Below, piece by piece: positions 907 to 62,480 of a stretch of DNA of 64,000 bases (position 1 is its first letter; each line of letters opens with the position of its first letter). Origin of the DNA: Eledone cirrhosa (Eukaryota); NCBI GenBank assembly GCA_964016885.1, contig OZ024741.1:17732001-17796000 (forward strand). Reading direction: 5' to 3'. The notes under the pieces were generated by a model, which was not told where the DNA came from, searched no databases, and saw only the letters and a list, made by a program, of their open reading frames with translations. The position numbers and the translations under genes are program-made.

Positions 907-1451
907 ATATAAGTATGTATACGTACATACATATATGTATACAGACGTACAGTAATATGTATATATATATACATAAATGCACCCATATATATATGTACGT
1001 ATGGATTCACCGAACATTTATTATAAAGCTCGGTGTGTTTGCAAACAAACATACCGAATTAAGCCGTACAGTGTCTAGCAACCATCGTTGCTCATTTGTT
1101 CAACACTGACAAAGACACTGACAATCATCTGGCAGGAAGGTATACGTTGCTGACGATAATTAATAAGCTTGAAACTAGTACAGCATTCCTTTGTCAGTGT
1201 TGAACAAATGAGCAACGATGGTTGCTAGACACTGTACGGCTTAATTCGGGATGTTTGTTTACAAACACACCGAACATTATAATAAATGTTCGGTGAATCC
1301 ATACGTACATATATATGTGCGCATGTATGTATATATATATACATACTACTGTACGTCTGTATACATATATGTATGTATGTGTACATACTTATATTTAAGT
1401 AACAGCCGTACTAAGAGTGGGAAATGAAATTTCGTTTCATTTTTTCCGTTT
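907..1451 (+). mobile_element. Non-coding fold-back element, family A, with a hammerhead in the spacer
   Basis: Inverted arms at about 907-1114 and 1189-1394, then a unique 57-nt tail. (TA)n on both sides. Second copy at 1912-2691. Confidence 0.85.
1146..1184 (+). ncRNA. Minimal type I hammerhead ribozyme (family A)
   Basis: GUUG CUGACGA UAAUU-AAUA-AGCUU GAA ACUAGU A^CAGC. Stem I GUUG/CAGC, self-complementary stem III, stem II partly decayed. Confidence 0.7.
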
Positions 1452-1560
1452 AAATATATATATATATATATTATATCTATGTATATATATATATATATAT
1501 ATATATATATATATATATATATATATATATATATATATATATATATATATATATATATAT

Positions 1561-1902
1561 AAATATATTGAGTATATGTTGGTTGTGTACCACAGCTTAG
1601 TATGCAGATTGCAGCACTCGACGGAGTGCGCAGGTTGGTTTGGTTACTCCGCAGTAATGTAAAACAAAATAAAATAAATAAGTCAAATGTTTAAAATTTC
1701 ACTTCGTTTATTACTGCTATATATATTTCGGTGACAGCCATCTTTGGCTGTGACCTCTTCAGGCAGTCCGAATTAGTGTGGTAGAGACGAGTACAGATGT
1801 TGTTGAGGTGTAGCCAAAGATGGCTGTCACCGAAATATATATAGCAGTAATAAACGAAGCCAAATTTTAAACATTTGACTTATTTATTTTATTTTATTTT
1901 AT
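1561..1902 (-). mobile_element. Fold-back element, family B
   Basis: Inverted arms at about 1666-1749 and 1812-1900. Homologous to 61939-62480. Between (TA)n tracts. Confidence 0.85.
1714..1766 (-). ncRNA. Type I hammerhead ribozyme (family B)
   Basis: Minus strand CUGC CUGAAGA GGUCACAGCCA-AAGA-UGGCUGUCACC GAA AUAUAUAU A^GCAG. Stems I and II pair. Confidence 0.85.
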
Positions 1903-1911
1903 ATATATATA

Positions 1912-2691
1912 TATATAAGTATGTACACGTACATACATATATGTATACAGACGTACAGTAGTATGTATATATATATATGCATACATGCACACATATATAT
2001 ATGTACGTATGGATTCACCGAACATTTATTATAATGATCGGTGTGTTTGTAAACAAACGTCCCGTATTAAGCCGTAGTGTCTAGCAACCATCGTTGCAAC
2101 CAACGAGCAACGATGGTTGCTAGACACTACGGGATGTTTGTTTACAAACACACCGAGCGTTATAATAAATGTTCGGTGAATCCATACGTACATATATATA
2201 TGTGTGCATGTATGTATATATATATATATACATACTACTGTACGTCTGTATACATATATATATGTACGTGTACATACTTATATATAAGTAACAGCCGTTC
2301 TAAGAGTGGGAAAAAAATTTCGTTTCATTTTTTCCGTTTATCGTTTTCGGGGCACCCGGCCGATTAACCCACGCGATATGCAAATTGGGCTACTCAGCCC
2401 TTAATATGCATAAGGTAAGTATATACGTTCAACAATCTGGCAGGAAGGTATACTTTGCTGACGATAGCTAATAAGCTTGAAACTAGTACAGCGTCCCTTT
2501 GTCAGTGTTGAACAAACGAGCAACGATGGTAAATCCATACGTACATATATATATGTGTGCATGTATGTATATATATATATACATACTACTGTACGTCTGT
2601 ATACATATAGGTATGTACGTGTACATACTTATATTTAAGTAACAGCCGTACTAAGAGTGGGAAATAAAATTTCGTTTCATTTTTTCCGTTT
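1912..2691 (+). mobile_element. Family A element: inverted arm plus partial tandem duplication
   Basis: Inverted arms at about 1912-2097 and 2106-2285. The unit end ccgttt occurs at 2339 and again at 2691. The internal segment carries AAG|GTAAGT and a hammerhead. Confidence 0.85.
2454..2492 (+). ncRNA. Minimal type I hammerhead ribozyme (family A)
   Basis: UUG CUGACGA U AGCU-AAUA-AGCU U GAA ACUAGU A^CAG. Confidence 0.8.
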
Positions 2692-2846
2692 ATATATATA
2701 TATATATATATATATATATATATATATATATATATATATATATATATATATATAAATAATGTGTTTTACTATGAATTAACAGTTTTGTGTTTAATTTCAT
2801 TGTTTTAATATTCCTATATATATATATATATATATATATATATATA

Positions 2847-2908
2847 CAGGAACAAGTATGACCCCGACAGCAGAGCTCAAGCCGTTTCGACGGATAATTC
2901 TGGACGCA
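2847..2908 (-). mobile_element. Fragment with the 3' half of a hammerhead (family K; also 5493-5575 and 56568-56640)
   Basis: Minus strand GAA ACGGC-UUGAGCUCU-GCUGU C^GGGG. The CUGANGA half is absent. Confidence 0.6.
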
Positions 2909-59340: not shown

Positions 59341-60449
59341 ATATATATATATATATATATATATATTTCAATCATATTTCAATCATATCTCATTTTGTTT
59401 GATCCGTTTTAGCTTGTTCGCTTTTTTGGCTATGGTGGTTAATGGCTTCTTAACCATCGTCTCAACGTGTATGACCTTTTTAACTTATGTTTATAGCTCT
59501 GGTATCTTCTTCAGTTCCATCGAGCGCTTGTCAGCACAATATGGAAGTTGCGTTTCGCTAATTTCTACCCACCGAAATGCGATTCTCGCTAAATTATATA
59601 TACACTCACACACACAGTCCTTTTGCTTTTTTACGCGAGGATGCATTCGGGAAAGCGGCGCATAAAGCAAATTCGCGTAAATCTAGTCTAATCTTCCTAT
59701 TTAAATTAATGGAAAAAACACGTTATAGCGCGTTATTCGATGAAGGTGAATATTTAATAATTTTTCAAAATGCGTTAATGCTAATTCGCGTACTTCACGT
59801 TCGCGTAAAAAGCAAACAGACTATATTTATAAACACACATATGTATATATATTTCAACGCATATATAAATGTATGTATATATATGTATTTATACTTTTTT
59901 TCTCTTTTACTCTTTTACCTGTTCCAGTCATCTGGCTGAGGTCATGGTGGGGCGCCGCCCTTGTTGCTACACGTTCTATCTCCAGCCTGTGTTGGCTGGC
60001 CATTAATGTGTGTGTATATATATATATACATATATATATATATATAATTGGTGTTGGATGCTTAAAGCGTCTGTATGCGGTAGGCCGTGGGGCACTCGAT
60101 GCTCTCATAGAGCAGAGTATGATGTCACAGAAAAAAAAGAAACAGTGTTGCGACGAATGGAATTTATTGGACATATTACAATCGTTTCCCTGGCGAGCAG
60201 CTCGAGGCACGATCGATGTGATGATCGAACCTGACTCTGAAAATCGCAAGGCCCTCAGATACGTCAGATTTTCCTAGGAAAATCAGCTTCGTAGAATCAA
60301 GACGTATATTTGCTCTACGGTTCTTATATATCTGATATATATTTATCCTTATCGAGCCCTCTTTGGATTTTAGTCTTCAAATTTATTATTATTACTATAT
60401 ATATTTATATATATATATATATGTATATATATACATACATATATTTATA

Positions 60450-61180
60450 CCCCACAACTCTCTACTTCCTCCACACCATACCAAGGTTTCTACACCTCTG
60501 GTCCACCGCTCCAGGCATCCACCCTGCTATACTCGGAATGTTCAACATCTATTCCTATACTCTGTGGGAAAACATTCAGGAACACACACAGAAACACTTC
60601 ATTATTTACGCACACACGCAACCATACATCCACACACACAAAACACACACACACACACACACGTGCGTATCCTCACATATGCATATCCTCTCTCTCCCAC
60701 CCCATCTGACCCCTCTCCATCCAGACACACACACTCACTTACACCCCACCTCATGTACACACTGGTTTCCCTATTACCCGAACATGGAACCTCGTTCTCC
60801 CCCAAACTCTCACACTCACATCCATACATACACACACACACGTACACCTACACACATACACAGACACCATCTTCCACCCTCCCCGTTCGGACTCCCCGTC
60901 ACCCCCCTCCACCCCACACGCCTCAGACCCTTTAAGCACTTGTTTCCTTTTAATTTTTAACCCTCTTTTTAATTCTTTTTCCTCCCCTTTCCCCACCTTT
61001 AATATCTTTCCACCACTCCCCCTCACGCTCTCGGAACTTTTTTCCTACCCACTTTTCCCTGATGAAGGGCTTATGCCCGAAACGTCGTCCCCCACCCCGC
61101 ACTCTCAAGCGTGAACCTAATACTAACACTTTGAACTGCACTCTTCGCTTTGTTTTTGTATACTGTTTTAACTATAATAT
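60450..61180 (+). mobile_element. Family I element with hammerhead core at 61059-61086
   Basis: Homologous to the reverse complement of ~49690-50290. Flanked by (TA)n. Confidence 0.7.
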
Positions 61181-61347
61181 ATATATATATATATATATAT
61201 ATATATATATATATATATATATATATATATATATATATATATATATATATATATATAAAGGATTATGAGTTCATGCAATTGACTTATGTTTCGTCACTAT
61301 ATATACAATATATTAATAAATGGAAACTATATTTATAAAACGATATT

Positions 61348-61413
61348 TATTTTATTATACATATTTCAAGGGCAACCAGGGCAAATTATGGTGCGCTTTC
61401 ATCAGATAAAATA
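61348..61413 (-). ncRNA. Hammerhead (family H) in element 61305-61597, with internal hairpin 61458-61528
   Basis: Reverse complement is nearly identical to 31374-31439. Confidence 0.8.
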
Positions 61414-61938
61414 CAGATTTGTTTTATAAATAAATATTGACATACCCGGAAAAAAGACAACCTTAACGGTTGGAGCTTCCTGAATAGTCAGTTGAGACTA
61501 TCCAGGAAGCTCCAACCGTTAAGGTTGAGTGCTTTATATCAGTTATAAAAATGTTTAAGCTTGTTGAATCCCAACAAATTAAATATAACCTCTGAATATA
61601 TATACACACACATATATATATATAAACGCGCTCATATATTCACCCAGCTTATGCTGACAGAATAACTATGAGCTTGTTCCCTTCCTATCTACGGTTAGCT
61701 TTCCTCTTTGTTGTTTACTTGTCTCACTCGCTTTACGCGTTTTAATTGTCCTAATAACTTAATTTAGTTATTATTGCACGAACGTGAGGTATATGATTTT
61801 TAATGCAATGAAATATCTATGATCGTTGGCAAATCACTGATGAGGGACTCATTTTATAACATGTTATCCATGTGCAACCTGCAGCATTCTTCTCCCCATT
61901 TTTTCATATATATATATATATATATATATATATATATA

Positions 61939-62480
61939 TAAAATAAAGTTAAATAAAAGTCAAATGATTAACATTTAGCTTCGTTTATTACTGCTATATA
62001 TATTTCAGTGACAGCCATCTTTGGCTGTGACCTCTTCAGGCAGTTTGAATTAGTATGGTATAGACAAGTACATATGTTGTTTAGGTGTATAATATTGTCA
62101 ATACTCTGATATGCCCAGTTCCTTGTTGGGCTGTTAATTCACTGAGGAACTGGAATCATATGACTCCAGTTCCTCAGTGAATTAACAGCCCAACAAGGAA
62201 CTGGGCATATCAGAGTATTGACAATATTATACACCTAAACAACATATGTACTTGTCTATACCATACTAATTCAAACTGCCTGAAGAGGTCACAGCCAAAG
62301 ATGGCTGTCACTGAAATATATATAGCAGTAATAAACGAAGCTAAATTTTAATCATTTGACTTTTATTTAACTTTATTTTACACTACTCCGGAGTAACCAA
62401 ACCAACCTGCGCACTTCGTTCAGTGCTCCAGCCTGCATACTGAGGTGTTGGTATACAACCAACATAAACTCAAAATCTCT
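61939..62480 (+). mobile_element. Family B fold-back: ~440-bp near-perfect palindrome plus ~100-nt tail. Hammerheads at 61991-62043(-) and 62276-62328(+)
   Basis: Centre catatg at 62157-62162. CUGC CUGAAGA GGUCACAGCCA-AAGA-UGGCUGUCACU GAA AUAUAUAU A^GCAG. Confidence 0.92.

Follow-up and report, generated by a model that had tools for sequence, protein, structure and literature searches.

In a window of 64,000 nucleotides from Eledone cirrhosa (NCBI GenBank assembly GCA_964016885.1, contig OZ024741.1, positions 17,732,001 to 17,796,000 of the forward strand), hammerhead ribozyme motifs are crowded into (TA)n tracts, and these motifs are real. We find it highly probable that the (TA)n tracts, of which 81 with at least six units lie in the window, act as a landing field in which most of the motifs belong to truncated 3' ends of Hydra- and Neptune-type Penelope-like elements (PLEs), while a minority belong to retrozymes that were likely copied in trans. 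A preliminary description of the window had listed about 23 type I hammerheads in about ten families and read them as non-autonomous elements, mostly without open reading frames (ORFs). Ten families, named A to J here, are supported by self-BLAST of the window and by genome searches. That many families of retroelements which target (TA)n carry type I hammerheads of the PLE type is borne out, while the non-autonomous reading fails for the majority of sites.

A strict descriptor (CUGANGA, stem II of at least 3 bp, GAAA, stem III, UH and stem I of at least 3 bp) matched the window 15 times, against a mean of 0.03 (maximum 1) in dinucleotide shuffles, of which 60 were made over the whole window and 60 locally within 500 bp, and each of 11 permuted decoy cores gave 0 matches. 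With a looser descriptor, permitting a stem I of 1 bp and a U3-A8 core, a motif is present at 20 of the 23 listed coordinates. At the remaining three the motif is mutated (1146, with a broken stem II; 30628, with A9>C; 55662, with a mutated base of stem II), but the hammerheads of these families are intact in other genomic copies. Sequencing contigs of a public run carry the restoring base at 30703 (A9 of the family G copy) in all of the depth that covers it, and two public contig sets confirm the repeats of the window. The sole unlisted match of the looser descriptor, at position 43689, looked like chance and was rejected. In an Rfam scan of the window (E ≤ 10), no hammerhead was found among the best 150 of 269 matches, and the Rfam matches seen were microRNA models on TA hairpins. 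This would agree with chance matches in AT-rich, low-complexity DNA; that explanation is refuted by the shuffle and decoy controls and by the multi-copy nature of the families, and we give it essentially no credence.

The genome searches covered nine families, with J left out, and at first look returned 2370 (A), 316 (B), 710 (C), 1927 (D), 1197 (E), 3359 (F), 2653 (G), 1407 (H) and 2166 (I) candidates. In the top-ranked homology-found copies of eight families (family E left out), 12 of 1613 core cells differ, compared with about 30 predicted from the flank rates by our own arithmetic. The families had been said to share this core but not sequence; the core is indeed common, but A and B are not unrelated, because they align and share their stem III sequence. 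Pairing is kept in 98.6% of the 145 stem cells of 15 motifs of the A/B type (slid controls, 32–58%), and two-sided changes occur at 7 of 10 stem pairs, in a set that leans towards structure since 10 of its 15 rows also pass the descriptor or were chosen from its matches. Compensatory stem changes also occur in D1/D2 and in C and E variants. We describe the window motifs as predicted type I hammerheads with an open stem I. The G10.1-C11.1 pair is found in the window only in G, H, I, J and B-1762, most families being without it, and the two family I sites, with a stem I of just 1 bp, are the weakest motifs.

Fourteen of the 23 sites (seven in A, three in B, one in H and three in J) are 5'-truncated 3' ends of coding PLEs, because longer copies of these families run upstream into a PLE ORF, which lies between a few hundred bases and about 1.9 kb upstream of the hammerhead. 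In family A, a long AT-rich untranslated region (UTR), common to most of 25 loci, leads upstream into an ORF with a GIY-YIG domain. Locus L325 is a complete element of this family, in the order hammerhead, ORF, UTR and hammerhead over about 4.1 kb; its ORF piece of 674 aa carries RWR, SDKT, YRDD, CNCRNKSNC and GIY-YIG, and CDLC..E..N..CRH is found in family A. A single ORF with reverse transcriptase (RT) and C-terminal GIY-YIG was seen in L325 and L334 and, for family H, in L279-L282. The longest family A copy in the window, with about 1.5 kb of 3' UTR, spans 56639..58135 on the plus strand (hammerhead 58039-58087), and a fold-back with one short and one long end lies at 58154..59338 (hammerheads 58202-58250, minus, and 59152-59200, plus). 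The other four are stubs: 31228..31474 (plus, an inverted tail and a direct end; hammerhead 31382-31431), 52897..53180 (plus; hammerhead 53083-53131, stem I shifted), 55479..55766 (plus; hammerhead at 55670, with the stem II base mutation) and 61289..61604 (minus; hammerhead 61356-61405).

In family B, the GIY-YIG ORF ends about 1.2 kb upstream in two of three extended loci (L321, L322). Only the endonuclease (EN) half was seen, with CNCRNPESC and CKLC..E..N..CRH and a Pfam match (E 0.0011) below the cut-off. A perfect fold-back of this family, with one short and one long end, occupies 61941..62472 (hammerheads 61995-62039, minus, and 62280-62324, plus), and a fold-back stub of a sister subfamily of the 62276 site occupies 1569..1899 on the minus strand (hammerhead 1718-1762). 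Family H forms a fold-back at 53205..53642, made of 3' ends of a young coding element, with a U3-A8 hammerhead at 53552-53582 on the plus strand and a mutated partner on the minus strand. It ends an ORF with RWK, SDKT and CNCRDRGRC (CxCX5C) in L279-L282, and many of its genomic copies are identical over 123 nt; its U3-A8 core is a known covariation, described from Schistosoma. In L279-L282, the RT–EN linker of H is also much longer than that of A, with overlapping open frames. For the four A stubs (sites 31374, 53075, 55662 and 61348) and B site 1714, the link to PLEs is homology to the coding subfamily (75–83%), and their subfamilies could be non-autonomous derivatives.

Protein motifs place A, B and H as putative Hydra-clade PLEs. 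Described diagnostics of that clade are RWK/DKT, a CxCX5C linker, CxxC/CxH around E and N, and the lack of CCHH (PMC8557442). The assignment rests on motifs because the Hydra RT region of family A had no RT match in Pfam or PDB; Atlas neighbours of the Hydra-clade PLE protein at 0.95 include RVT_1 clusters. One C-terminal-EN PLE of this clade is the Octopus bimaculoides element Hydra-1_Obim (Craig et al. 2021, PMC8557442), which prefers (TA)n according to the supplement of that work and which the PLE proteins of the present genome resemble in a comparison by eye. The families here share RWK/DKT, CxCX5C and the lack of CCHH with the clade, and like its members they have a hammerhead close to the 3' end, insert at (TA)n and show 5' truncation, an inverted partner and a tail at one end only. 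They differ in that family A reaches about 4.1 kb with a 3' UTR of about 1.9 kb, whereas described members are generally <3 kb; in tails of about 66–160 nt rather than 30–40; and in the U3-A8 core of H.

Family J shows its coding origin within the window. The preliminary description had called the elements mostly ORF-less and 150–1100 bp long, but the J hammerheads listed at 53796 and 55196 flank an ORF remnant in a 1.8-kb segment (Pfam GIY-YIG E 3.5e-5). This segment, 53655..55446 on the plus strand, is a 5'-truncated coding PLE with an inverted pseudo-long terminal repeat (pLTR), and its hammerheads lie at 53800-53834 (minus) and 55200-55234 (plus). Its protein remains comprise an RT end, a CX4CxxC linker and a GIY-YIG domain with CCHH at 54586-54993. 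The linker (Neptune-type, CX2-5CxxC) suggests that J is a Neptune-type PLE, with Neptune and Nematis left unseparated. A J-related 3' end of a coding Neptune-type PLE, 70% identical to the end of J's ORF, lies at 24480..25213 (plus; hammerhead 24959-24992). J resembles PLEs of the Neptune type whose hammerheads are minimal (Cervera and de la Pena 2014, PMC4209133) in CX4CxxC and GIY-YIG, in a stem II of 6–7 bp with an unpaired 5' base and a G-C pair, in a stem I of 4 bp and in a minimal stem III. That work also describes truncated copies that leave one motif or a pair on opposite strands, as found here, whereas most of the non-J families lack the conserved G10.1-C11.1. A further J fold-back, at 721-889, consists of the tail only.

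Families C, D, F and G (6 of the 23 sites), in turn, appear from their sequence to be non-LTR retrozymes, ORF-less units of 316–540 bp arranged head to tail, and for these the earlier claim of non-autonomous self-cleaving retroelements agrees with ORF-less units in a PLE insertion geometry. Units measure 417–437 bp in C (about 422; arrays of 15–19, up to 19 anchors per 10 kb), 518–542 bp in D (about 524), 486 bp in G and about 316 bp in F, with longest stop-free frames of 53–111 aa. Two or more consecutive motif-bearing units were seen in C, D and G, and partial tandems only in F (15 loci). Folded as a circle, one monomer each gave z scores of -7.2 (C), -6.3 (D) and -4.3 (G) against 30 shuffles. 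Family C provides a fold-back at 996..1452 (unit of about 420–430 bp; hammerhead at 1150, plus, stem II broken) and a partial tandem at 2004..2692 (plus; hammerhead 2458-2488, with U.U at the base of stem II and a palindromic stem III). Family D provides D1, a 5'-truncated copy of a 518–542-bp unit, at 3018..3468 (plus; hammerhead 3342-3411, with C.A at the base of stem II) and D2, 68% identical to D1, at 31555..32120 (minus; hammerhead 31625-31696, with compensatory changes in stems I and II). Family F has 1.3 copies of its unit at 26222..26654 (minus; hammerhead 26360-26393). At 30560..31157 (minus), family G has one 486-bp unit and a truncated upstream unit of 112 bp (hammerhead 30643-30709, A9 mutated).

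These units resemble metazoan non-LTR retrozymes (Cervera and de la Pena 2020, PMC7229834; Li et al. 2026, bioRxiv 10.64898/2026.07.22.740005) in being ORF-less and head-to-tail with one type I hammerhead per unit, in highly self-paired circles, in coexistence with PLEs and in the U.U also found in axolotl HHR_Amex2. They differ in that the D and G units (486–542 bp) exceed the 170–450-nt invertebrate range, and in being (TA)n-targeted with a PLE double-end geometry and with no pLTR homology to a coding PLE found in the comparison with A, B, H and J. In all four families, units within a locus are closer to each other than units of different loci, and no A>G excess, hence no editing signal, was found among the private variants of C, D, F and G. 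In the random sample described below, L191 and L243 hold tandem hammerhead units of 312 bp (seven) and 486 bp (two), likely further retrozyme families.

Families E and I (3 of the 23 sites) are assigned to neither group, as neither a unit boundary nor an ORF was reached upstream. No coding master was reached in 14 loci of E, with at least 0.8 kb of UTR-like shared upstream sequence and no ORF, or in 29 upstream regions of I, with at least 1.45 kb of such sequence and no ORF. E is represented by a fold-back stub at 26882..27077 (hammerhead 26970-27007, minus, stem I of 9 bp, stem III looped) and I by two 3' ends with minimal hammerheads, 49949..50500 (minus; 49985-50012, stem I of 1 bp) and 60450..61176 (plus, with a C/A-rich upstream region; 61059-61086). 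That all ten families are non-autonomous self-cleaving retroelements is thus most improbable in our view: the reading is in keeping with the short, ORF-less form of most window copies, with the best 29 genomic copies of 31374 (all stubs of about 250 bp), with the ORF-less tandems of C, D, F and G and with the ORF-free upstream sequence of E and I, but it is refuted for A (the 58031 subfamily), B, H and J, whose longer copies enter PLE ORFs, for J within the window itself. For E, I and some A subfamilies the reading still stands.

Genome-wide load was estimated from a random sample of 100 stretches of 10 kb on 26 large contigs, with positions drawn on lower-bound lengths and small scaffolds left out. 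In this 1.0 Mb, the strict descriptor matched 160 times (shuffles, 0–2 per Mb), with 77 matches in one 78-bp satellite and 83 dispersed. The satellite, in L223 (G000:C28:30804028-30814027), is a tandem of about 78 bp that is nearly all E-type hammerhead. The dispersed density, 84 per Mb (bootstrap 59–113), extrapolates to 1.8–3.4 x 10^5 motifs (about 250,000) in the 3.0-Gb genome. U3-A8 matches were left out of this figure because the looser U3-A8 descriptor gave 13 matches in the random sample against 7–11 in shuffles, not above background. We distinguished 25 types among the dispersed motifs; a few have one member each and may be due to chance. The window, at 234 per Mb, is about 2.8-fold above the random sample, and six random pieces reach 14 matches in 1.8% of draws; recognisable PLE ends and retrozymes make up approximately 19% of the window and at least 4% of the sample. 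Published counts are 126,247 for axolotl, about 9,000 for Xenopus, >6,000 for a coral and about 5,000 for a mussel, obtained by differing methods, and the giant squid genome paper gives 235 hammerheads by Rfam. Our estimate suggests a load that exceeds those counts, the descriptors being different. The density claimed in the preliminary description therefore stands in that the window exceeds a genome average that is itself high, but the kind of system is already published.

The elements had also been described as bounded by (TA)n. This holds on the downstream side only: among 74 motifs of the random sample, 77% have (TA)n of at least five units within the next 200 nt (control 17%), compared with 16% on the upstream side (control 18%), which is at chance. 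The 3' ends of the families lie in (TA)n at fixed sites, and most families have two: counted from the cleavage site, these are +48/+139 in A, about +54/+153 in B, +60/+220 in H, about +21/+87 in E and +74/+187 in G. Among 82 divergent same-family pairs (fold-backs), taken from loci ranked by likeness to the query, 56 join a long and a short end, 2 join two short ends, none joins two long ends and 24 are unclassifiable; 56 of the 58 classifiable fold-backs thus have one end of each kind, as in PLE insertions. In fact, 5' truncation, partial tandems, an inverted partner, a tail at one end and a microsatellite target, which form the PLE insertion signature, are all present.

The ORF-less families C, D, F and G are mostly dispersed over many chromosomes, with 5' truncation, fixed 3' sites in (TA)n and inverted partners. 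These marks of retrotransposition stand against the reading of their units as satellites that arose from PLE pLTRs and spread as DNA, by unequal exchange and slippage and with no RNA step. Such a route has been proposed (bioRxiv 10.64898/2026.07.22.740005), and the family C arrays of 15–19 anchors per 10 kb and the E-related 78-bp satellite that fills L223 with 77 motifs would fit it; we nevertheless regard it as quite unlikely for the ORF-less units.

At 6 of 12 ends with read-through, at least four alternating T/A nucleotides continue the element (background 3%), which suggests paired priming, unlike in the Anolis element. An RCTC..GAGY hairpin lies 6–11 nt behind 5 of 14 ends (both ends of A, and B, E and the long end of H); with a GTTC..GAAC variant that was added post hoc and is found at the short ends of D and G, where it resembles the Hydra hairpin, the count is 7 of 14, with a background of 0.7% for both patterns together and no hairpin at the other 7 ends. 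Six further rows were set aside from this count, as they show flank or internal TA and not the element. One-sided tails of 30–40 bp are known for PLEs, and in vitro the tail has been traced to two internal RT start sites (PMC11167929). The element studied there, Poseidon PAc of Anolis (Frangieh et al. 2024), is alike in that two fixed 3' ends past the hammerhead bracket the tail, in AT-rich targets and in a dimer model, but differs in starts without target homology and a 30–40-nt tail, compared with 4–6 nt of TA microhomology at half of the ends and longer tails here.

These observations are compatible with the following mechanism: (I) a PLE protein, probably as a dimer, would nick both strands of a (TA)n tract, as the geometry and the Anolis work (PMC11167929) indicate; (II) reverse transcription would begin at two internal RNA sites 3' of the hammerhead, one per strand, often aided by TA pairing over 4–6 nt and, at ends of the Hydra type, by a small hairpin; (III) both cDNAs would stop early and be joined, giving stubs, fold-backs and partial tandems; and (IV) each insertion would leave TA tracts as fresh targets, so that repeated insertion may build up the dense patchwork. 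The predicted hammerheads probably cut multimeric transcripts, mostly as dimers via the palindromic stem III, as PMC4209133 also implies, and cleavage would yield unit-length, possibly circular retrozyme RNAs. E, with the loop on its stem III, would be expected to cut as a monomer, and I to fail. Hydra-type enzymes probably mobilise the retrozyme units in trans, given the shared geometry and the hairpin of D and G.

Several results weigh against this account. Among random-sample motifs, G10.1-C11.1 is present in only 17 of 83 and U.U in only 29 of 83, which may lower activity, and minimum-energy folding of isolated motifs gave the three-way junction in 1 of 10 correctly placed motifs. In published work, 8 of 9 Xenopus dimer elements failed to cleave (bioRxiv 10.64898/2026.07.22.740005), and for the Anolis PLE hammerhead the protein is required and cleavage is dispensable for insertion in vitro (PMC11167929). 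The ranking of fold-back loci by likeness to the query biases the architecture counts. C, D, F and G have no real sequence similarity to the coding families A, B, H and J (best E 5e-4), and no driver was found there. Finally, only 24 private variants occur in every copy of their locus, compared with 512 that do not, and a single circular template is therefore possible but not demonstrated. The dispensability of cleavage for Anolis PLE insertion in vitro would also suit motifs that PLE RNA retains for protein binding or folding and not as working ribozymes, and so would the non-canonical 10.1-11.1 pair, U17 or stem I of 1–2 bp seen in many motifs. However, all 11 catalytic positions are kept across >20 stem III types, the exchange to U3-A8 in H is among the covariations known for the core, and in the axolotl HHR_Amex2, where stem II has U.U at its base, the monomer cleaves weakly and the dimer better. 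A pure signal role is accordingly rather doubtful to us, and we retain predicted, dimer-acting hammerheads in truncated PLE ends and retrozymes.

The kind of system is thus known, and the elements are unusual mainly in load. PLE hammerheads and the remnants that they leave singly or on opposite strands (PMC4209133), Hydra PLEs of an octopus within (TA)n (PMC8557442, supplement), retrozymes (PMC7229834) and the origin of retrozymes from PLEs (bioRxiv 10.64898/2026.07.22.740005) have all been published; the animals mentioned in the text of the last are confined to vertebrates, insects and a coral. The literature searched, which was incomplete in coverage, yielded no description of retrozymes from cephalopods or of a comparable hammerhead load, and the word ‘ribozyme’ does not occur in the text on the O. 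vulgaris repeat library (PMC13282606). A more far-reaching proposal, which we advance tentatively as possible though short of probable, has two parts. With about 250,000 dispersed motifs of >20 types, and hammerhead satellites besides, the load of this genome would be larger than any counted so far; and its ORF-less retrozymes would be inserted into (TA)n by Hydra-clade enzymes that recognise a hairpin common to these RNAs and start cDNA synthesis at two set positions in the RNA, each serving one DNA strand, through TA pairing with the target. If true, it would provide a sequence code for retrozyme–PLE parasitism that is legible from genomes. As it is, ‘TA junk’ becomes recognisable PLE ends and retrozymes that Rfam-style annotation misses, and thousands of natural insertions offer a large sample for PLE transposition, with regard to end priming, the nature of the tail and retrozyme mobilisation.

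The window holds further TA-associated features. A degraded, 5'-truncated copy of another hammerhead family, outside the earlier list, lies at 55950-56186, with a long stem II and a palindromic stem III, and looks intact in locus L335. A very common TA-bounded palindromic element, recurring in many fetched loci, is found at 2850-2900, 5476-5660 and 56568-56639; it has GAAAC in a hairpin with no CUGANGA upstream and may represent either a ribozyme that has been rearranged or one more PLE end. Fold-back stubs at 441-568, 23062-23270 and 23352-23522, bounded by TA and lacking the hammerhead core, are probably ends of other PLE families. A (TA)n/(CATA)n-bounded repeat family of about 600 bp, with copies 86–92% identical and no hammerhead core, occupies 4203-4637, 21565-22158, 27804-28421 and 50558-51146. 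Tandem repeats comprise a 7.6-kb (TTACTGTTG)n-type satellite at 32159-39783 and a 33-bp minisatellite at 41147-42452. Several copies of long interspersed nuclear elements lie at 6138-15823, 18085-21117 and 44972-48390; from their ORF motifs we take these to be RTE-like, two 95%-identical copies with a restriction-like endonuclease tail, L1/Tx1-like, and a further RT element.

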